From positions 1 to 45,338 of the forward strand of contig CAYJWS010000001.1 in the NCBI GenBank assembly GCA_964373925.1: a stretch of DNA of 45,338 nt, in the 5' to 3' direction. Below, one piece after another: positions 10,993-45,338 of this stretch. Below the pieces are notes generated by a model that saw only the letters and a program-made list of their open reading frames with translations, ran no database searches and was not told where the DNA came from. This DNA comes from an uncultured Gammaproteobacteria bacterium. GTDB lineage: Bacteria; Patescibacteriota; Patescibacteriia; Buchananbacterales; GWA2-38-13. Made by a program: the position numbers and the translations under genes. Position 1 is the first letter of the stretch; each line of letters starts with the position of its first letter.

Positions 10993-11050
10993 CTTTCTTT
11001 AAAAAAATATAATACACATAACAACAGTTTCTTGCTACAATAAAGACACC

Positions 11051-11572
11051 ATGAAACATCTCAATATTGAAATTAAAGCAAAGTGCGAAAATCACGAAAA
11101 AATCCGTACTATTTTAACATCTCATAATGCGGACTTTAAGGGAACAGATCACCAAATAGATACATACTTCAAAGTGAATAAAGGAAGACTCAAGTTGCGC
11201 GAAGGCAATATTGAAAATTATCTTATCTTTTACGAGAGAGAAAACAAAGAGGGCCCAAAACAATCAGACGTTATTCTTTATAAAATCGATCTAAAATCCT
11301 CACTTAAAAATATTCTCCTCAACTCGCTTGGCATTCTTACAATAATTGATAAAACTCGGGAAATATATTTTATAGACAATATAAAATTCCATATTGATAC
11401 CGTAAAGGGGCTTGGAACGTTCGTTGAAATTGAAGCTATTGACAGTAACGGCACTATTGCGAAAGAAAAATTGCTTGAACAATGCAATAACTTCCTAAAA
11501 CTCTTTGATATTCCAAAAGAAGATCTTATTTCGGTATCTTACAGCGACTTGCTTTTAAAAAAAATACAATAA
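11051..11572 (+). CDS. CYTH-domain protein (class IV adenylyl cyclase / triphosphatase family)
   Basis: 173-aa ORF; N-terminal ExExK motif (NIEIKAK), RLKLRE, and VKGLGTFVEIEAI near the C-terminus are typical of CyaB-like CYTH proteins. Confidence 0.8.
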   Translation: MKHLNIEIKAKCENHEKIRTILTSHNADFKGTDHQIDTYFKVNKGRLKLREGNIENYLIFYERENKEGPKQSDVILYKIDLKSSLKNILLNSLGILTIIDKTREIYFIDNIKFHIDTVKGLGTFVEIEAIDSNGTIAKEKLLEQCNNFLKLFDIPKEDLISVSYSDLLLKKIQ

Positions 11573-11578
11573 GCTTTT

Positions 11579-12073
11579 ATGGAATATCTAGATATCGTAA
11601 ATGACGACAACGAAACAATTGGTACGGTAGCGCAAGAGGAAGTTTATAGAAAAAAACTCAACCATCGTATTGTTCATGTTTTTGTAATACATCCAACGTC
11701 AAATAAAATATATTTTCAAAAACGATCTGAAACAAAGTCTTTTCTCCCGGGATACTATTGCACCTCTGCTGGAGGGCACGTACGAACAGGAGAGACATAT
11801 AAACAAGCCGCGAAACGCGAACTTTTTGAAGAAATTTGTATACAAACTCCCGTAGAAAAAATACATTCCATGCTATTTATTTCCGACGGCCATAAAAGGT
11901 TTATTGAGCTCTATATTACAAAAGCGGATGATGGTTTTCTATTTCGAGATGGAGAAGTGTCGTCCGGAGAATTCTTTGATTTTGACGACGCAAAAAAACT
12001 TATTGAAAAGGGTGAAAAAATTCATCCCCAGCTAAATGTTTGTTTTTCTTGGCTGATAAAAAATAAAATATAA
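11579..12073 (+). CDS. NUDIX hydrolase
   Basis: 164-aa ORF; complete Nudix box GGHVRTGETYKQAAKRELFEEICI; 6 nt after the CYTH gene, so probably co-transcribed. Confidence 0.85.
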   Translation: MEYLDIVNDDNETIGTVAQEEVYRKKLNHRIVHVFVIHPTSNKIYFQKRSETKSFLPGYYCTSAGGHVRTGETYKQAAKRELFEEICIQTPVEKIHSMLFISDGHKRFIELYITKADDGFLFRDGEVSSGEFFDFDDAKKLIEKGEKIHPQLNVCFSWLIKNKI

Positions 12074-12163
12074 TTTAAAATGGTTTCTCGCATTTTTGGT
12101 TTTTTTTAATGTATAGCCTCAATCACTTTTTCCTTTTTTAAAAAAGTGGTATAATAATCTTAT

Positions 12164-12191
12164 TTGACACTTATTTTTTTATTGTTATAAT
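12164..12191 (+). promoter_or_regulatory. sigma70-like promoter upstream of the hicB-like gene
   Basis: TTGACA (12164-12169), 16-nt spacer ending in TGT, TATAAT (12186-12191). Confidence 0.55.
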
Positions 12192-12218
12192 AAAAATCAA
12201 CAAATAACCATCAAAATC

Positions 12219-12542
12219 ATGTCGTTGGGAAAACAGGTAAAAGATTATGCAGTGAAAATTCTTTGGGGTGGCAAATTTGTCCCACAAGGACTTTTTGAAG
12301 TATCCGAATACTTCAGAAACAACAGCGCTATTATATTTGATTACCATAAAACAGAAAACGGCTTAATGGCGGTTAGTAAAAATTTCAGATACGGTTCAAT
12401 TGTTACCCATGGCAAAGATGCCGAAGAACTGGATAAGAACATTAAGGATGCCATACTCACTTCATTCGAAGTACCATCGTCTTACCGCAAAGAGGCTGCT
12501 ATTAAAAAAGTGGTGACAGAGAATAAATATGCCCTCACTTAG
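12219..12542 (+). CDS. hicB: HicB-like antitoxin candidate
   Basis: 107-aa ORF overlapping the HicA-like ORF by 14 nt; GLMAVSKNFRYGSIVTHGKDAEELDKNIKDAILTSF resembles the HicB/UPF0150 N-terminal fold segment; no obvious DNA-binding tail. Confidence 0.5.
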   Translation: MSLGKQVKDYAVKILWGGKFVPQGLFEVSEYFRNNSAIIFDYHKTENGLMAVSKNFRYGSIVTHGKDAEELDKNIKDAILTSFEVPSSYRKEAAIKKVVTENKYALT

Positions 12543-12774
12543 TCAACTTCCTGATAAATTAAAAAGAAACAAATTAACCAGGGCGCTTACTCATCTTGGT
12601 TTTGAAATAAGCACAAAGGGTGGCAAAGGCAGTCATTTTAAAGCCGCATATATATTCAACCAAAAATCTATTACCATACTTTTTGATTTAAGAAAAGACG
12701 TTCTGTATTATGTATTAAAAGAGATTGAAATTCAAACCGGTATTACATGGTATCAAATCAAAAATTATCTATAG
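12529..12774 (+). CDS. hicA: HicA-like (YcfA family) mRNA interferase toxin candidate
   Basis: 81-aa ORF; LTRALTHLGFEISTKGGKGSHFK matches the HicA core (L...GF......GSH). Confidence 0.65.
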   Translation: MPSLSQLPDKLKRNKLTRALTHLGFEISTKGGKGSHFKAAYIFNQKSITILFDLRKDVLYYVLKEIEIQTGITWYQIKNYL

Positions 12775-12979
12775 TGCTAAAATAAAAATCTGATGTATAA
12801 ATTCGTTTTTGAAACGATTTTTTTTATTATTTGGTCATTATAATAATCTCAATATCCTTCTTATAAACATATTTAAAAAATGGTGCAAATTTTAATAAAT
12901 CATACTAAGGTATTTTTTAAAATAAAAAAGACCCTTCAGGATTGCTCCATGGATTTGGGTCAAAGCCTTTTTTACGTTA

Positions 12980-13008
12980 TTGACAATATAAAAAATGTAT
13001 TATAGTAT
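12980..13008 (+). promoter_or_regulatory. sigma70-like promoter of the TPR gene
   Basis: TTGACA (12980-12985), then TATAGT after 15 nt or TAGTAT after 17 nt (13001-13008). Confidence 0.5.
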
Positions 13009-36851: not shown

Positions 36852-39800
36852 TTATTCACCAATTGTTAATGGAGTTGAGGTGGATGTCACGCCAAGCCCT
36901 GCCACAAGATACCCGTTAAACCACTGTTTGGTTGTTAAACCCGTGCCCGTAGTTGTTTCCGTTATATTAAGGTCTGACCAAACAAAATTTCCTTGATTAA
37001 GTATTTTATATGCAAATGCGCTTTCTCCTGGCGTAGTAGACGCTGTATCTCCAAGCAAGCTCGTTGATACGGTATCGGCATTTGTTGTCAGGGTGGCCGT
37101 GGCAATAAAATCAATTGTAGCGGTAGCGCCATTGGCAATACTCAATAAACTTTTACCATGCGACTGCGTTGAATCAATTGCCATGTTCCAAATCTTAACA
37201 CCAGATACAACATCAGATCCCACGGCTACTGTTGTCGCAAGTTGGCTTCCATCCATAATTCCGCCGCAACCGCCTCCGCATGATACAAGCCTTGTATAAC
37301 CATTCGCCAAGTTAACATTTACTGAAGTCGTTGTTACATACGATAAACGATAGATACCAATATTTCCTCCCACTGCCGTAATTTTTGCTTCATGCAACAC
37401 TGACATTGCTGAAAGCTTGTTTATGGGAGTAACCATAACTATCTGTGGAACGGATTTATGTAAAATAACAGCGGATCCAGTTGTATCATTAAGCGATACC
37501 GGAATCAAAGCTGCTGAAAGATTACCCATAGCCGTAAACCCATCCGGACCTCTGCCGCCTAAGCCCATTACAATGTCAGCGCTTTCAGTTCCGGGTAAGT
37601 TGCTTCCTATTGAAACAATATCCGCGAGAACGCTCAATTTTTTTCCAATATTGCCTTCTGGAATGGTTACGTCGCCTCTTACAAGATTAATAGTAAGATT
37701 CGCCGTACCCATATTATAACCAAATGGAGATCCGACAATATTGCCATCAAGCTTGAGGTAAACTTTGGAAATCTGCGTATAATCGCCAACTGCCGAATTA
37801 ATTTGCGCGTCTGCGACCGTAACAGTAAGCTTTGTGATATCAATAGATTCGTTAGTTGCCTTTAATCTGATATCGGTAAGCGGAACCGCGCTGCTTCCGG
37901 AAACCACAAGCCGCTTGGACAAAGCCGAAGCATCAAGTCCCGCGCTAGTATTTCCTGTTCCTGGAGTGCCTCCTTCGGCAATTGTTATTGGCGTACTTGT
38001 CGCAGTCGAACCTAATCCTGAAACAAGATAGCCATTAAACCACTGGGGACTTGTAAGGCCGCCAGATGTGGTGACTTCAGTATTCCTAAAATCTGACCAG
38101 ACAAAGTCGCCTTGATTATTAAGGGTAAACGCATATGCTGGCGCGCCTGTCAAATTGTCGGTCATGGTAGATGCGGTATCGCCAAGCAAGCTCGTTGATA
38201 CGGTATCGGCATTTGTTGTCAGGGTGGCCGTGGCAATAAAATCAATTGTAGCGGTAGCGCCATTGGCAATACTCAATAAACTTTTACCATGCGACTGCGT
38301 TGAATCAATTGCCATGTTCCAAATCTTAACACCAGATACAACATCAGATCCCACGGCTACTGTTGTCGCAAGTTGGCTTCCATCCATAATTCCGCCGCAA
38401 CCGCCTCCGCATGATACAAGCCTTGTATAGGCATTAGTCAGACCAACGCCTGAAGAAACCGCTGTAGTATAAGATAAACGAAATACACCAATGTTTCCTC
38501 CCACTGCCGTGATTTTTGCTTCATGGAGAATCGATGTAGTCCCAAGAGTGTTTGTGGGAGTAACCAAAACTATCTGTGGAACCGCCTTGTGGAGAATGAC
38601 TGCTGTGCCAGTTGAATCATTGTAGTTCTTGTTTGCGTTTGTAACTATTGCGTTTGAACCATTGCCTACGGCAATAAAACCATTCTTGCCATTTAATCCT
38701 ACTTTAATATCAGCATTATCTGTCCCTGCTTCGTTCGTTCCAATTTTCACGAGGTCAGCAAGAACTTCCAGTTTCTTTCCAACAGTACCCATTGGAATAG
38801 TCAAATCGCCTCTTCCAAGAGTAATAGTCATGTTTGAGGCGCCTATGTTATAACCGGAAGAATTTCCTACTACATTGCCGTCAAGCTTAAGATAAAACTT
38901 AGAAATTTGCGTATAGTTTCCTACACCAGTTCCCTTAAGTCCTCCGTCAGCTACCCTTACAATAAACTGTGTGATATCTATATCTTCATTGGTTGCTTGT
39001 AATCTAGCCGCAGTCATTGGCACCATGGATGAACCAGCTACAACGAGCCGTGCCGGCAGAACTGAAGAATCTAGGTTAATATTTAAAGTGCCAGCTCCTT
39101 GAGTTGGGTCTATAATTTTTACTTCTGGAGCCGTAACTTCACCTTCTGGCATGGCAATGATCTTTTCCACAGAATCAATGCCATATACAACAAGTTCATT
39201 AGGCACTAAAAATGTTGAAAGACTGTTTCCTACAATCCAAAAATCTAAATCACCATATATAGAAAAAGTATGTTCACCGACAGGAAGAACCACGTATTCT
39301 GTAAAAATAACTATTCTCGTTTTATCTGATAATCGATACGAAGAATTTTTTGGACCCATAATAACTTGACCCGATTCATCCCTTACTACAATATGCCTAA
39401 TGAGATCTGCCACATCGGGCGCAGGATGATTTAATCTAAAATGCACATCAAACATTGAAATGCTTACTGGCTCATTTTTTACAGTAAATTTAAATTTTCC
39501 AAGTAATACATTATCTGTCTTTTTTTGAGCTGTACCTGCTGAATCCAAGGGTTCAATATTAAGAGTTCCAATATCGCCCGAGTAAGGATAGGTTTCACAG
39601 CCCAAAGAATCTGGTGTTGGATCATAACCCGCAGTAAACGCGCCTGGACTAGGCAACTCTTGCACTGTGCCCAGACTATACCACGATGAAATATATATGG
39701 CGTCGGATAAATCTATTGCTCCGTCGTCATTGGCATCGGCGGCGTCTTCACATTGCATTTTTTTTGTAGAAGTAAAAATTTCCGTAATTCTTACCATATC

Positions 39801-41240
39801 GCTTATATCAACTTTTCCGTCAATGTTGGCATCGCCTCTTCGAAATTTCTTTTCTTGCGGAGATACCACTTTTAATAATTGAGATGTGCCTGCTCCTCCG
39901 CCTTGGGCATTTTGTATATTTTCATCATTGCCCACCGCTCTTTTTGTCCAAGCGGAAGCAGGTATAGAAGCGTGAACCAAGGATGAATCTTTAAGTGACG
40001 CAAGGATATTTGAATCATTATAGCCGCCGTAGCAAGATGCTTTTTTGGCAAAATCAAGAAATGATTTTTTTACGGTTTTCTTTCCTTTGAGCACATTAAA
40101 TCTTTTGACAAAATCATTATAACAAGCTCGCTCTGATTTTATTTCCATCCGCGGTTTGCCGTACGCATAAAACGCAATACTTGCAGAAGGCGCGGGATCT
40201 TTTGGATCATGGCCGGTACTTGCTTCTTGACCATCAGAAAATCCATCTCCGTCAGTATCGGTATTAAGAGGATCTGTTTTAAATACATTTTTTTCATCAA
40301 AATCATTAACGCCATCTTTATCCGTATCAATAAATGACAAAACATTTACGTTTAGTGGCTTTTGTTTTATTTGGACAGTAGGAGATACTAACTTTTTTTC
40401 TAGTGGATACTTCTCGCATCCCAGGTTATCTTTAGTAGGATCAATACCTGCAACCCTTGAACCGGGCGATGGCAATAATCTGTCTCCTCCATAACTTATA
40501 TAGGAAGAAAGGTTTACAAGATCCGATATGTCAATGCGCCCGTCATCATTAGTATCCGCAGCGTCCTTACAAATAATAGAATTTCCTGAATAGAGATAAT
40601 TGCTTAAAATTAAAATATCATTTACTGAAACAAATTCATCTCCGTCAACATCACCTCTTCGAAAACGCAAAGCTTCTTGAGTAACAGTATTATCAGGATT
40701 TGCTGGCGTTGAAATGATTGGTGATGGTGATAATTCTGGAGTTGGGGTTACTTTTGGAGTAGTTTGTGGATTTGGAGATTTTGAAACAACTGCAACTGGA
40801 TTTACTGAGGGTGTTGGTGTTGGAGATATGCGTTGTATTGGAGTAGCCGAGACTACTGGAGAGGGGGAGGGGCTTGGAGATGTCGATGGATTTGGTATTG
40901 GAGATGAAACTGGAGAAGGTGTAATACTTGCGCTTGGGGAAGGGCTTACGGAAGATGAGGAAGAAGGCGATGGAGTGGCGCTAGCACTCGACGTAACAGT
41001 CGTACTTGGGGATGGAGTTGTCGTAGATGGAGGGGTTGGCGAAGCAGAATACGCGACCCCCAAGATTCTTGGGTCATTAGTAATTTTTGTTGAAGCCGAG
41101 GCAATTTGCATCGCAAAGACAAAAAAAGCCACAATAACAATTGTGGTGGCAAACGCCGTATACGCGTGCAAGTAGATGTGTTCGTGAAAATGAGCATACC
41201 ATCCTTTTTTGTTTACATTTTTTGTTTGGGCGTTTTCCAC
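36852..41240 (-). CDS. giant secreted protein: leader, P/S/T linker, two dockerin-like modules, TSP3-like repeat, and two ~377-aa tandem repeats with a CGGGCGG motif
   Basis: 1462-aa ORF; FRRGDVDGDEFVSVND..CKDAADTNDDGRIDISD and FRRGDANIDGKVDISD..CEDAADANDDGAIDLSD; DTDKDGVNDFDE..DTDGDGFSDGQE; C-terminal half is a 1131-bp tandem duplication. Confidence 0.85.
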   Translation of the reverse strand: MENAQTKNVNKKGWYAHFHEHIYLHAYTAFATTIVIVAFFVFAMQIASASTKITNDPRILGVAYSASPTPPSTTTPSPSTTVTSSASATPSPSSSSSVSPSPSASITPSPVSSPIPNPSTSPSPSPSPVVSATPIQRISPTPTPSVNPVAVVSKSPNPQTTPKVTPTPELSPSPIISTPANPDNTVTQEALRFRRGDVDGDEFVSVNDILILSNYLYSGNSIICKDAADTNDDGRIDISDLVNLSSYISYGGDRLLPSPGSRVAGIDPTKDNLGCEKYPLEKKLVSPTVQIKQKPLNVNVLSFIDTDKDGVNDFDEKNVFKTDPLNTDTDGDGFSDGQEASTGHDPKDPAPSASIAFYAYGKPRMEIKSERACYNDFVKRFNVLKGKKTVKKSFLDFAKKASCYGGYNDSNILASLKDSSLVHASIPASAWTKRAVGNDENIQNAQGGGAGTSQLLKVVSPQEKKFRRGDANIDGKVDISDMVRITEIFTSTKKMQCEDAADANDDGAIDLSDAIYISSWYSLGTVQELPSPGAFTAGYDPTPDSLGCETYPYSGDIGTLNIEPLDSAGTAQKKTDNVLLGKFKFTVKNEPVSISMFDVHFRLNHPAPDVADLIRHIVVRDESGQVIMGPKNSSYRLSDKTRIVIFTEYVVLPVGEHTFSIYGDLDFWIVGNSLSTFLVPNELVVYGIDSVEKIIAMPEGEVTAPEVKIIDPTQGAGTLNINLDSSVLPARLVVAGSSMVPMTAARLQATNEDIDITQFIVRVADGGLKGTGVGNYTQISKFYLKLDGNVVGNSSGYNIGASNMTITLGRGDLTIPMGTVGKKLEVLADLVKIGTNEAGTDNADIKVGLNGKNGFIAVGNGSNAIVTNANKNYNDSTGTAVILHKAVPQIVLVTPTNTLGTTSILHEAKITAVGGNIGVFRLSYTTAVSSGVGLTNAYTRLVSCGGGCGGIMDGSQLATTVAVGSDVVSGVKIWNMAIDSTQSHGKSLLSIANGATATIDFIATATLTTNADTVSTSLLGDTASTMTDNLTGAPAYAFTLNNQGDFVWSDFRNTEVTTSGGLTSPQWFNGYLVSGLGSTATSTPITIAEGGTPGTGNTSAGLDASALSKRLVVSGSSAVPLTDIRLKATNESIDITKLTVTVADAQINSAVGDYTQISKVYLKLDGNIVGSPFGYNMGTANLTINLVRGDVTIPEGNIGKKLSVLADIVSIGSNLPGTESADIVMGLGGRGPDGFTAMGNLSAALIPVSLNDTTGSAVILHKSVPQIVMVTPINKLSAMSVLHEAKITAVGGNIGIYRLSYVTTTSVNVNLANGYTRLVSCGGGCGGIMDGSQLATTVAVGSDVVSGVKIWNMAIDSTQSHGKSLLSIANGATATIDFIATATLTTNADTVSTSLLGDTASTTPGESAFAYKILNQGNFVWSDLNITETTTGTGLTTKQWFNGYLVAGLGVTSTSTPLTIGE
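37051..37298. repeat. 248-bp segment 100% identical to 38182-38429 (copy in the distal tandem unit)
   Basis: base-by-base comparison of the two stretches at an offset of exactly 1131 bp (377 codons); flanks diverge immediately (37050 T vs 38181 G; 37299 A vs 38430 G). Confidence 0.9.
38182..38429. repeat. 248-bp segment 100% identical to 37051-37298 (copy in the proximal tandem unit)
   Basis: same as above; encodes TRLVSCGGGCGGIMDGSQLATTVAVGSDVVSGVKIWNMAIDSTQSHGKSLLSIANGATATIDFIATATLTTNADTVSTSLLG. Confidence 0.9.
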
Positions 41241-43008: not shown

Positions 43009-43094
43009 TGTGATAGATGCTTGACATTATTTAATGAATGAAATAGTATAAAATAAAGGAATATTAGCACTCTACAATATTTGCCCCTCTCATT

Positions 43095-43382
43095 TTGTTA
43101 ATGTATTTTGACGAAATACTCGTTAACAGAATCGAGAAGGGCAAAGCTAAAAAAAGCTTAACACGAGGATTCGTCATCCTAATAGTGTACCCTCTCAATT
43201 TAACACATAATGCTAAACATATGTTTCAAGCATTGCGAGCGGGTTTCACACTCGTTATTATAATCCTTGTGCTTCAAGCTCTTCTCCCTGAGGTAGCCTC
43301 GGGCATAATTCAAATCATTCTTAAAATGATCGGCATCGCGAATTATTCTCTTGACCAAGCCATCGATGGCTTGCCTCAGTGA
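43095..43382 (+). CDS. small hypothetical membrane protein (weak; the true start may be the internal MFQALRAG)
   Basis: 95-aa ORF with one clear hydrophobic helix (FTLVIIILVLQALLP); followed by terminator 43387-43419. Confidence 0.3.
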   Translation: MLMYFDEILVNRIEKGKAKKSLTRGFVILIVYPLNLTHNAKHMFQALRAGFTLVIIILVLQALLPEVASGIIQIILKMIGIANYSLDQAIDGLPQ

Positions 43383-43386
43383 TCTT

Positions 43387-43419
43387 TAAAAAGACTCGAA
43401 CCTTCGAGTCTTTTCTTTT
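43387..43419. terminator. bidirectional terminator between the small ORF and the SEFIR/TIR gene
   Basis: stem AAGACTCG/CGAGTCTT, A-run before and T-run after. Confidence 0.75.
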
Positions 43420-43436
43420 GGCGAATTTCGGGAGAG

Positions 43437-44885
43437 CTATTTAATGGTACCTATCTTATTTGGATCAATAACATTTTCTAATGGAAGAATCTCATAATCC
43501 CATGGATGTCTGCGTTGTCGCTCTTTGTTTTTCTCAGTATATTCTGCAATCAATTTTTTAAGTTGCTCAATATTTTGAATATCAAAAAGGACTTTAATTT
43601 TCTCAAAATATTGAAACGATATCATTCGCTCAAATAGCTCAACGGCACTTCCACGAGAATTATATACAGAAGTTCGAGGAAACCACGAAAACCTACCTCC
43701 ATACAATTCAGTTATATAATACAGAACCAAATCTGCCTGTTTGATTTCATCAAAACTAATATCCGTGCGTGTTGAATGTTCCTTAATTAAATCCGCAGTC
43801 AAACTGACACGACGCTTGTCTAATCTTTTATTTCTTGTTTCATCCAGTGAACGAGAAGACTTATTAAAAATATTAATACCGTTATATGTTAATTCACTAG
43901 AATTTGGATGATGGTAGAAGTATTGAGAGTTTATGAAATGGGAAACCTCCTTATACTTTTTCAACTGCAGAAGTATCGCAACAAAATTTAGAATAAGTTC
44001 ATAAGTAAAAAATTTGTAATTATCATAATCAACCTCAGTATAAGACTGAATATTTTCTGGACGATAAAAAAATGGTATCAATTTTTCAAAAAAGTTATGG
44101 AATTTTTCAAAATCAACAGATTCTTGATATTTAAACACTGTAAAAACAAAATCAATAAAATCATCCCTCAAAGGAAGCATTTTTTCTATTGTTTTAACTA
44201 CACGATCATCAAAATCTGTCATCGAGCCACCCGACAAACGAAAATCTTCTAACAAAAAAATCACCGTATCAAGATAATCCGAGATTAAACCGTTTGAGCT
44301 TCGTCTATCATTTAAAAGTGCATTCTTAATTTCAGCTACCTTGTGAGATGTTTTTAATACGATCTGCTCTTCCTCGACAATATAGACGGGTGGAGTTCCG
44401 AGTAATGGTCTTTTTAGTAACGGTTTATCGTACAAATTCCTTATCAATTTTTGATAACTTTCTTCAAATTTTTCATCCGAAGAAAGATCAATATAAATTC
44501 TACTCGCCATATAATGCGGAATGCAAGGGTTCCCCGCGTCATCATATTCCCGCACAATGGGAATAAATTTTTCTTGGACAGTATTTTCATAAACCTCTTT
44601 TGAAATTAACTGTGTTTCTGTCCCCACTCCTCCCTTTCTATCATCAGCTTTCGTTTGATAAACACGGTCACAAACAACAAGCACTTTTTTAATATTTATA
44701 TCATTTATCATTTGCTCCATAAAAACATGTTTATCCTGTCCCCCTTTCAAATCCCACTCATCCAATACCACGACTATCCCATCTCCAGACAAACGCACCG
44801 CTAAATCTAAAACCCACTGCTTATGTTGTAGGCTTGTCCAGCTATAAGAGATAAAAACTTTAGGTTGTGCGGTGCTACCTTTCAT
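43437..44885 (-). CDS. SEFIR/TIR-like domain protein with an uncharacterised ~330-aa C-terminal domain
   Basis: 482-aa ORF; N-terminal PKVFISYSWTSLQHKQWVLDLAVRLSGDGIVVVLDEWDLKGGQDKHVFMEQMINDINIKKVLVVCDRVYQTKADDRKGGVGTE matches the bacterial SEFIR/TIR_2 pattern as I know it; the remainder is helical with no recognised motif. Confidence 0.75.
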   Translation of the reverse strand: MKGSTAQPKVFISYSWTSLQHKQWVLDLAVRLSGDGIVVVLDEWDLKGGQDKHVFMEQMINDINIKKVLVVCDRVYQTKADDRKGGVGTETQLISKEVYENTVQEKFIPIVREYDDAGNPCIPHYMASRIYIDLSSDEKFEESYQKLIRNLYDKPLLKRPLLGTPPVYIVEEEQIVLKTSHKVAEIKNALLNDRRSSNGLISDYLDTVIFLLEDFRLSGGSMTDFDDRVVKTIEKMLPLRDDFIDFVFTVFKYQESVDFEKFHNFFEKLIPFFYRPENIQSYTEVDYDNYKFFTYELILNFVAILLQLKKYKEVSHFINSQYFYHHPNSSELTYNGINIFNKSSRSLDETRNKRLDKRRVSLTADLIKEHSTRTDISFDEIKQADLVLYYITELYGGRFSWFPRTSVYNSRGSAVELFERMISFQYFEKIKVLFDIQNIEQLKKLIAEYTEKNKERQRRHPWDYEILPLENVIDPNKIGTIK

Positions 44886-44912
44886 AATTTTTGGTTGGGG
44901 ATAACTAACTAC

Positions 44913-44952
44913 TTGTATACTTTCTATTTATCTTCTATACTGATAGTATAAT
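44913..44952 (+). promoter_or_regulatory. lexA promoter region with a candidate palindromic operator
   Basis: TTGTAT (44913-44918), 17 nt, TATACT (44936-44941); second -10 TATAAT (44947-44952); perfect palindrome TATACTgatAGTATA (44936-44950) overlaps both. Confidence 0.45.
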
Positions 44953-44977
44953 CCTTATAAAATTCTCGTCAATACCC

Positions 44978-45338
44978 ATGATTACCAAAAAACAAAAAAA
45001 GGTGCTTGATTTCATAAAAATTTATAAGACCGCCAAGGGCTATGCCCCCTCTCTTGAGGAAATTGGTAAAAAATTCAAGCTTGCTTCAGTATCTACTGCC
45101 CACTATTACATAAAAAAACTACAGGAAGCTGGGCAACTTAATAAAGAATTTAATCAACCCCGGGGCATTTCGGCTATTGAACAAAAACAAACGATAGAGA
45201 TACCAATTCTCGGCGCAATTGCGGCAGGTGAGCCTATTGAGGCGATAGAAATTCCTGATGAAACCATCACTATTACAAAAGATGAAATTGGAAAGCAGGG
45301 CAAGCACTACGCTTTGCGTGTGCAAGGTAGCAGTATGA
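44978..45338 (+). CDS. lexA: LexA repressor, 5' partial (continues beyond the window end)
   Basis: my translation from ATG 44978: MITKKQKKVLDFIKIYKTAKGYAPSLEEIGKKFKLASVSTAHYYIKKLQEAGQL..IPILGAIAAGEPIEAIE..YALRVQGSSM; winged-helix, Ala-Gly cleavage site and the G-S-S-M catalytic serine motif are all present; not in the ORF track because no stop is reached. Confidence 0.85.
   Translation, partial: MITKKQKKVLDFIKIYKTAKGYAPSLEEIGKKFKLASVSTAHYYIKKLQEAGQLNKEFNQPRGISAIEQKQTIEIPILGAIAAGEPIEAIEIPDETITITKDEIGKQGKHYALRVQGSSM

Follow-up and report, generated by a model that had tools for sequence, protein, structure and literature searches.

A bSEFIR-family defence gene adjoining an apparent restriction–modification module in a probable Patescibacteria genome

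Our subject is a single gene near the right-hand end of a 45,338-nucleotide stretch of contig CAYJWS010000001.1 (assembly GCA_964373925.1; hereafter the window, that is, the whole stretch analysed). The gene is a complete 482-residue open reading frame (ORF) on the minus strand, with an ATG start and a single stop, that encodes an N-terminal SEFIR domain and a long helical C-terminal domain; judging from its full-length match to a defence profile, it is a new member of the known single-gene bSEFIR defence family. As the initial annotation had described, it lies between a surface-protein/glycosylation block, found to encode a PMT_2 glycosyltransferase and dockerin surface proteins, on one side and a LexA-like ORF on the other; the latter is divergent, and a 92-bp intergenic region separates it from the SEFIR start. 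The gene, its domains and its own signals are as follows:

43437–44885, minus strand: bSEFIR gene, complete 482-residue ORF including the stop codon (ORF list, PADLOC profile, ratio of nonsynonymous to synonymous substitution [dN/dS], GC content)
44436–44864, minus strand: N-terminal SEFIR domain of TIR fold, residues 8–150, presumed NADase effector and oligomerisation module (Pfam, 5Y8E, Foldseek)
44616–44618, minus strand: codon of Glu90 in the GGVGTE loop, candidate catalytic glutamate (invariant in 23 homologues and conserved in 5Y8E)
44367–44435, minus strand: low-confidence inter-domain linker, residues 151–173 (pLDDT <50 for residues 155–173 of the full-length model)
43440–44366, minus strand: C-terminal all-alpha domain, residues 174–482, presumed phage sensor or autoinhibitory module (AlphaFold2 model)
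44945–44972, minus strand: predicted sigma-70-type promoter directed toward the SEFIR gene, TTGACG–16 nt–TATACT (10 of 12 consensus positions)
about 43388–43415, both strands: bidirectional intrinsic terminator hairpin, shared with the convergent upstream region (sequence and fold energy)

The assignment of the start codon is supported by the N-terminal sequence MKGS, because this is shared with SEFIR homologues. The sequence motifs from which the initial annotation recognised a SEFIR/TIR-like protein are all present (FISYSW at residue 11, FME at 55, KVLVVC at 67 and GGVGTE at 85). The bidirectional terminator that it had placed at 43387–43419 is also real, because the hairpin has a 12-bp stem, T-runs on both strands and a folding energy of −15.4 kcal/mol (z = −3.9); a simple consensus scan did not flag this hairpin. 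At the other end of the gene, promoters with a geometry like that of the predicted SEFIR promoter (TTGACT, 16–18 nt, TATACT) were read by eye in the sequences of two homologous loci (L003 and L005).

The PADLOC bSEFIR profile (PDLC03957) matches residues 5–481 in one stretch (E = 1.2e-108, 362.6 bits, profile positions 37–385 of 412), and it is this match of the whole protein that places the gene in the bSEFIR family. The N-terminal 164 residues alone score 273.4 bits against the profile; the C-terminus adds ~89 bits when it is chained to them. Two results indicate that the second half of the profile describes the same C-terminal domain: a ParA-like protein without a SEFIR domain (P0256) has a C-terminal domain that matches profile positions 209–364 (E = 1.5e-15), and tblastn aligns the window protein end to end with homologues from Paenibacillus, Clostridium, Thermohalobacter and many other phyla at ~40% identity.

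The SEFIR system consists of one gene, taken from Bacillus sp. NIO-1130, that defends B. subtilis against phi29; a D40A substitution at the SEFIR–SEFIR contact of the Bacillus protein abolishes this defence, and the family is enriched in defence islands, with members in 460 genomes of >20 phyla (Millman et al., 10.1101/2022.05.11.491447). A second report states that the family uses its N-terminal SEFIR domain to deplete nicotinamide adenine dinucleotide (NAD+) and that phages counter it with the NARP1 pathway (10.1101/2024.02.11.579819). The window gene resembles this system in having an N-terminal SEFIR domain followed by a C-terminal region of ~320 residues, in its similar size, in consisting of one gene and in having relatives near defence genes; it differs in that its host is probably a bacterium of the Candidate Phyla Radiation (CPR), in that it adjoins a LexA-like ORF and the probable restriction–modification (R-M) module to which that ORF belongs, and in that it is known here from its sequence. 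A similar logic, that is, one polypeptide with an N-terminal NAD+-degrading effector, a helical C-terminal sensor and an abortive outcome, is found in DSR1/DSR2, which are likewise countered by NARP1 (10.1101/2024.02.11.579819); however, their effector is SIR2 rather than SEFIR, their sensor is unrelated, and the proteins are much larger.

The reading of residues ~8–150 as a SEFIR/TIR fold is borne out by profiles, sequence and structure prediction. Pfam matches over residues 8–148 are TIR_2 (2.4e-16, 60.7 bits) and SEFIR (1.9e-15, 57.9 bits). The only significant sequence matches among solved structures are to the SEFIR domain of B. cereus F65185 (BcSEFIR; PDB 5Y8E/5Y8F; Yang et al. 2018), with E = 8.6e-36 for 5Y8E, ~55% identity over residues 8–163, shared motifs that include the GGVGTE loop, and E = 3.6e-49 for the family profile; that structure covers the domain only, and a search with the 5Y8E sequence returned 14 short proteins (144–264 residues), all without the C-terminal domain. 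In a full-length AlphaFold model built from 23 homologues (pLDDT 82), the nearest Foldseek matches are again 5y8e/5y8f (TM 0.83–0.87), followed by the domains of SARM1, SPARTA TIR-APAZ, MyD88 and ACT1; the best fold match is to 5y8e (1.9e-10, vs 1.2e-3 for the SARM1 TIR domain). Members of the bSEFIR family were selected by an N-terminal SEFIR domain whose SEFIR match is stronger than its TIR match (10.1101/2022.05.11.491447). For the window protein, the match to 5Y8E is far stronger than that to AbTIR in a profile search (E = 0.66, with only residues 10–53 aligned), although the Pfam hidden Markov models alone give a near tie.

Five residues of the SEFIR domain (D42, D45, D51, E57 and E90) are invariant among the 23 homologues, which are 49–90% identical; the aspartates D42, D45 and D51 are possible counterparts of the interface residue D40 of the Bacillus protein. 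Glu90 lies ~80 residues after strand A, which is the offset of the catalytic E642 in SARM1, and because of this position Glu90 is the best candidate for the catalytic residue. The TIR NADases (SARM1, AbTIR, SPARTA TIR-APAZ, Thoeris ThsB) share with the window protein the flavodoxin-like TIR fold (Foldseek probability 1.0, TM 0.6–0.7 to the target), a conserved acidic residue after helix C and, as presumed logic, an activity that depends on oligomerisation. They differ in that the sequence similarity is marginal and in that no Argonaute, ThsA or other partner is found at the window gene: it has no conserved neighbour that could be a partner effector, and its C-terminal domain matches none of the Argonaute, APAZ or STING folds. 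SEFIR has been placed as an outgroup of the TIR clan (10.64898/2026.04.30.722052).

The C-terminal ~320 residues are, as the initial annotation stated, helical, rich in phenylalanine (8.2%, vs 4.4% in the housekeeping ORFs of the window) and without a motif or fold that can be named from Pfam, PDB or BFVD. Structure prediction for this domain alone gave a confident model (pLDDT 87.8, pTM 0.89) that is all alpha except for one small hairpin, and a fold search with this model found no match in the PDB (best E = 0.57, TM ≤0.22) or BFVD (best E = 0.39). With a Pfam threshold as loose as E ≤10, residues 165–482 alone remain without a match. Searching PDB sequences with a profile yielded matches at chance level only, and papers that cite SEFIR gave neither a structure nor a trigger for this domain. 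Nevertheless, the domain is not new. HMMER, run exhaustively over 1.84 billion cluster representatives, found 1275 clusters (50% identity) of relatives at E ≤1e-3, of which 147 reach E ≤1e-30. Most of the clusters are SEFIR fusions of ~480 residues, and 107 of the 148 best relatives carry a SEFIR domain in this layout, so the C-terminal domain is the standard partner of bacterial SEFIR. Together with the ~89 bits that the C-terminus adds to the profile match, this identifies the layout as the canonical bSEFIR architecture that has already been reported; thus, the suggestion that the gene is a new defence variant is not supported.

The same tail also occurs behind other heads, including a Ser/Thr kinase (P0142, related to PD-T4-6/mad6), ParA/AAA_31-like domains (P0223 and P0256, related to PDC-M28B) and a weakly TIR/nucleoside-deoxyribosyltransferase-like domain (P0167), and headless proteins of ~300 residues are found as well (among the relatives P0142, P0223, P0256, P0167 and P0152). 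Because effector heads are exchanged on a constant tail, we infer that the domain is a modular sensor or regulatory module; its invariant residues are D226, D288, Y295, E296, R351, R354, R359, D365 and W401. With >1000 clusters, a confident model, no known fold and reuse with varied heads, the bSEFIR C-terminal domain is a defined target for finding what is sensed. PF27287 appears in the precomputed domain lists of five homologues ~90% identical to the window protein (P0002, P0003, P0005, P0008 and P0009) and is absent from the list of the window protein itself.

The gene is under strong purifying selection: dN/dS is 0.07–0.12 against four homologues (L001–L004) and is similar in each domain. 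Its GC content (33.5%) is 7 points lower than that of the window (40.4%), and homologues that are 84–88% identical occur in unrelated CPR lineages and in a metagenome-assembled genome (MAG) labelled Gammaproteobacteria; because of these two observations, we conclude that the gene was acquired horizontally, the recipient genome probably being one of the Patescibacteria (CPR). Similarity to other SEFIR loci at the DNA level is confined to 43411/43437–44889, that is, to the ORF and at most 26 nt past its stop codon, and the homology to L001 and L002 stops inside the terminator hairpin, at 43411. Among 80 species genomes, the flanking families differ (74 families among 77 genes at position −1 and 67 among 70 at position +1), and no conserved partner gene was found at positions −4 to +4. 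This absence of a conserved neighbour, with a promoter-like site and a terminator of the gene's own, agrees with the initial description of a self-contained unit; from these comparisons the gene is evidently self-contained, horizontally moving and selected.

The closest homologues with informative flanks all adjoin R-M genes:

L001, L161, L162 (88–90% identical to the window SEFIR): SEFIR directly after a BsaWI-type R-M operon
L004 (78%): adjoining MvaI/BcnI endonuclease, methylase and HNH protein
L003, L163–L165 (84%): SEFIR divergent from a LexA of 202–208 residues, then a C5 methylase
L005 (75%): SEFIR divergent from a LexA–S24–methylase fusion

Thus, these closest homologues lie among defence genes (in L001, L003, L004, L005 and L161–L165), and the defence function proposed at the outset is supported both by these neighbours and by the full-length profile match. 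In this clade, SEFIR travels as a bare ORF that lands beside type II R-M modules, forming minimal ‘R-M plus abortive infection’ islands. The finding as such is of modest value, in that it adds a bSEFIR gene, intact and under selection, to a probable genome of the Patescibacteria, a group thought to be poor in CRISPR.

A few of the homologous loci merit separate description. In the genome with the 90%-identical homologue (L161:602–4895; also L162), SEFIR is the last gene, 6 bp after a BsaWI-type operon with the order C-protein-like helix–turn–helix (HTH) protein, methylase, endonuclease and second methylase, which suggests that SEFIR is co-transcribed with the R-M system there. An Acidobacteriota MAG (L008:9995–11443) has SEFIR split into ORFs of 298 and 167 residues that adjoin an apparent PIN/antitoxin pair (read from sequence alone), and a Saccharibacteria MAG (L006:10166–11203) has an ORF of 345 residues without the N-terminus, ~4 kb from a probable serine recombinase.

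We consider it likely that the window gene encodes a single-protein bSEFIR abortive-infection system, horizontally acquired and located in a small defence locus beside a type II R-M module. Transcription would most likely run from the TTGACG–16–TATACT promoter to the hairpin at 43388–43415. In the uninfected cell, the C-terminal alpha-helical domain would keep the protein inactive; during infection, this domain would recognise a phage-derived cue, and the N-terminal SEFIR domains would then associate via SEFIR–SEFIR contacts, for which the D40A variant of the Bacillus protein is the precedent in the family. The assembled TIR-like site, probably with Glu90, would hydrolyse NAD+ to ADP-ribose and nicotinamide, in keeping with the NAD+ depletion reported for the family, and the loss of NAD+ would starve the phage and abort the infection.

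Several points weigh against this interpretation. The C-terminal 318 residues alone have no PADLOC match at E ≤1e-3, and the sameness of this domain with that of the validated Bacillus sp. NIO-1130 protein is drawn from the profile; Pfam TIR_2 slightly outscores SEFIR; the catalytic residue is assigned from its position, and the sensing role of the C-terminal domain from its modular distribution. The R-M neighbour in the window is deduced from homologues, the contig ending 450 bp away, and the neighbours visible inside the window are housekeeping or surface genes: these are recA, a RodZ-like gene, ftsK, rpoC, rpoB, a Mur ligase, two dockerin/TSP3 surface proteins and the PMT_2 glycosyltransferase, and further left glyA, folD, a histidine kinase, ychF, CYTH, NUDIX and others.

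The presumed R-M neighbour is the LexA-like ORF:

44978–45338, plus strand: LexA-like ORF with DNA-binding domain, A–G cleavage site and the start of an S24 peptidase (truncated to 120 residues where the contig ends)

Its relatives lie in 80 metagenome loci (L081–L160), in which the N-termini are 78–93% identical. Of the complete relatives, 55 of 57 are 620–714 residues long (mostly 620–633) and are methyltransferase fusions with the layout LexA_DNA_bind, Peptidase_S24, N6_N4_Mtase (PADLOC MTase_II, 2.3e-132; e.g., L123:4001–5866); a convergent restriction endonuclease of the MvaI/BcnI type is the next gene in 46 of 54 loci. The window ORF is probably the N-terminus of such a LexA–type II methyltransferase fusion, and we reject its default interpretation as the housekeeping SOS repressor, given that its relatives are methylase fusions in R-M modules. 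The initial annotation had remarked that no R-M genes are visible; this apparent absence is most likely an artefact of an assembly break in a variable island, because both the homologous SEFIR loci and the lexA relatives carry R-M genes. Four loci (L003 and L163–L165) have a separate LexA of ~205 residues ahead of a C5 methylase instead of the fusion.

The fusions conserve the A–G cleavage site and the Ser/Lys dyad, so their S24 peptidase looks active, and the whole resembles an R-M system whose controller cleaves itself and may respond to DNA damage; in a literature search that was not exhaustive, we found no description of a LexA–methylase fusion with a self-cleaving S24 peptidase. The family resembles the SsoII/Ecl18kI-type methyltransferases and the C-protein controllers in joining a DNA-binding domain to a methylase and in having a conserved promoter region with repeats. 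Methylases with an N-terminal HTH autorepress the R-M operon, and divergent, competing promoters are described for Ecl18kI (PMC3874152). The difference is that the DNA-binding part of the lexA–methylase family is a complete LexA with S24 peptidase, implying DNA-damage input.

The position divergent from lexA–methylase, which in the window is occupied by SEFIR, is highly variable: it holds 52 unrelated families in 75 loci, among them CBASS cyclases with 2TM effectors, PARIS-like AriAB, DUF4238-Pers, PDC-S39 and a weak AbiV-like HEPN, and SEFIR is absent from it in all 80 related loci. The only unusual feature of the window SEFIR gene is that it adjoins an apparent R-M system whose methylase carries a LexA-like repressor domain.

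The 92 bp between the two genes belong to the lexA side, as indicated by DNA homology to the 80 lexA loci that begins at 44881–44902 and stops at the SEFIR start codon. The features of this region are as follows:

44886–44977, no strand assigned: shared divergent control region, belonging to the lexA side (DNA homology to 80 lexA loci)
44896–44905, no strand assigned: box TGGGGATAAC (conserved upstream of lexA–methylase)
44913–44918 and 44936–44941, plus strand: lexA −35 TTGTAT and −10 TATACT, separated by 17 nt (homology with the 80 loci)
44922–44937, no strand assigned: direct repeat TTCTA-N6-TTCTA, in the promoter spacer (conserved upstream of lexA)
44936–44950, no strand assigned: palindrome TATACTGATAGTATA, two back-to-back −10 hexamers (sequence)

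Among 71 distinct lexA upstream regions, the DnaA-box-like sequence TGTGGATAAC/TGGGGATAAC is present in 58 (0.06 expected), the TTCTA-N6-TTCTA repeat in 69 (1.6 expected) and the palindrome ATACT-N3-AGTAT in 14 (0.85 expected), the last always at −41 and in a subgroup with long leaders. Within the window, these motifs are unique at zero mismatches, and none is near recA; because they recur neither elsewhere in the window nor near recA, the LexA domain is more likely to be a local controller of the R-M module than a global SOS repressor. At most lexA–methylase loci the mRNA is apparently leaderless or nearly so, with the ATG 7–10 nt after TATAAT, and many start codons of the divergent genes lie within ~25 bp of the conserved box. 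Two further candidates were rejected: the palindrome TATAC-N5-GTATA as a LexA operator for lexA and SEFIR, which is not over-represented in the window and resolves into two −10 hexamers, and the GGATAAC box as an integron-type core site (GTTRRRY/RYYYAAC), which its sequence does not fit.

With this arrangement, SEFIR expression could also be under the control of the same repressor or of competition between the promoters. A stronger form of this idea is that SEFIR is one arm of a co-regulated R-M and abortive-infection unit, in which the LexA domain would set SEFIR expression by occupying the shared control region, an effect lifted when DNA damage or phage attack leads to RecA-stimulated self-cleavage; we hold this as a tentative alternative, possible but improbable. 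In its favour, three independent SEFIR–lexA junctions (the window, L003/L163–L165 and L005) share the divergent geometry, in each of them a near-consensus promoter directed toward SEFIR overlaps the lexA −10 or 5′ region, and the region common to both genes contains the TTCTA-N6-TTCTA repeat (69/71) and the box (58/71). The cleavage site and catalytic dyad kept in the fusions also favour it, as do the precedents of CapH/CapP, CapW and CapK/CapS, which respond to DNA damage and are encoded ahead of immune operons (10.1101/2022.04.27.489752; PMC11662680; PMC13373217). There, too, the gene for a damage-sensing repressor lies upstream of, and divergent from, defence genes of various kinds, CBASS among them; these regulators are built from HTH and metallopeptidase, WYL or kinase components rather than LexA/S24, and regulation of the neighbour is putative here. 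However, the operator of the LexA domain is itself putative; the palindrome can be explained simply as two −10 hexamers; 0 of the 80 closest lexA–methylase loci carry SEFIR, and most of them do not have the long leader that bears the divergent promoter; the close SEFIR homologues in L001, L161 and L004 have no LexA neighbour; and the adjacency of SEFIR and lexA could be mere clustering in islands.

We would give only a minor chance to the proposal that SEFIR is the cargo of a variable ‘defence slot’ whose expression is wired to a self-cleaving LexA domain, one that is part of an R-M methyltransferase or is encoded immediately ahead of it. If this were true, cleavage of the repressor in response to DNA damage or phage attack would turn on the R-M module together with the divergent abortive-infection gene, and the locus would be a LexA-based counterpart of CapH/CapP, CapW and CapK/CapS in CPR bacteria. 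The LexA–S24–methyltransferase fusions and their hypervariable defence neighbour suggest a link between the sensing of DNA damage and the control of R-M and abortive infection; the modular C-terminal domain of unknown fold and the LexA-linked R-M system with its variable defence slot are the parts that deserve follow-up.

The remaining alternatives concern the protein itself. Some TIR proteins are signal synthases, as in Thoeris, and the TIR fold and conserved Glu of the window protein would also suit a maker of a nucleotide signal that, like ThsB, requires a separate effector and does not itself deplete NAD+. We regard this as very unlikely, in view of the absence of a conserved partner gene at positions −4 to +4 in the 80 genomes and the reports that the family protects as a single gene and depletes NAD+ (10.1101/2022.05.11.491447; 10.1101/2024.02.11.579819). 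Equally hard to credit is a non-enzymatic protein–protein adaptor in a housekeeping or SOS-related process. Eukaryotic SEFIR domains are adaptors, a general interaction role was proposed for bacterial SEFIR before defence was shown (Yang et al. 2018, as cited in 10.1101/2022.05.11.491447), and the gene adjoins a LexA-like ORF and lies 22 kb from recA; but the relatives of the LexA-like ORF are parts of R-M systems, the control motifs of this ORF are found neither ahead of recA nor at other places in the window, SEFIR is missing from all 80 related lexA loci and has no conserved lexA linkage, and the neighbourhood that varies between genomes, the horizontal transfer and the invariant Glu90 all point elsewhere. 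Least probable of all is that a transferred defence gene has here become inactive or is decaying, as in the disrupted homologues L008 (split ORFs) and L006 (without the N-terminus), given that the window ORF is uninterrupted over its full length, every invariant residue is kept and dN/dS is 0.07–0.12 in both domains.

The rest of the window offers a few minor observations. Rfam and tRNA scans of the window gave no match. A 428-bp stretch (43009–43436) that separates the PMT_2 gene from the SEFIR stop codon has no homologue among the 160 loci compared and no Rfam match; it contains a promoter-like site (10/12) at 43021–43049 and an ORF of 95 residues at 43095–43382 (TTG start, internal ATG at 43222) that has a hydrophobic stretch and ends just before the shared terminator. 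The dockerin/TSP3 surface protein of 1462 residues (36852–41240, minus strand) has a long, nearly exact internal duplication: the segment RLVSCGGGCGGIMDGSQLATTVAVGSDVVSGVKIWNMAIDSTQSHGKSLLSIANGATATIDFIATATLTTNADTVSTSLLGDTAST is present twice, C-terminal to a Ser/Pro/Thr-rich N-terminal region. Finally, positions 11000–13000 have a low GC content (30–34%, vs ~40%) and hold adjoining genes for a CYTH-domain protein (11051–11572) and a NUDIX hydrolase (11579–12073); this stretch may have been acquired horizontally, and a relative of the NUDIX protein (29% identity) is encoded in the island that precedes lexA–methylase in L099.

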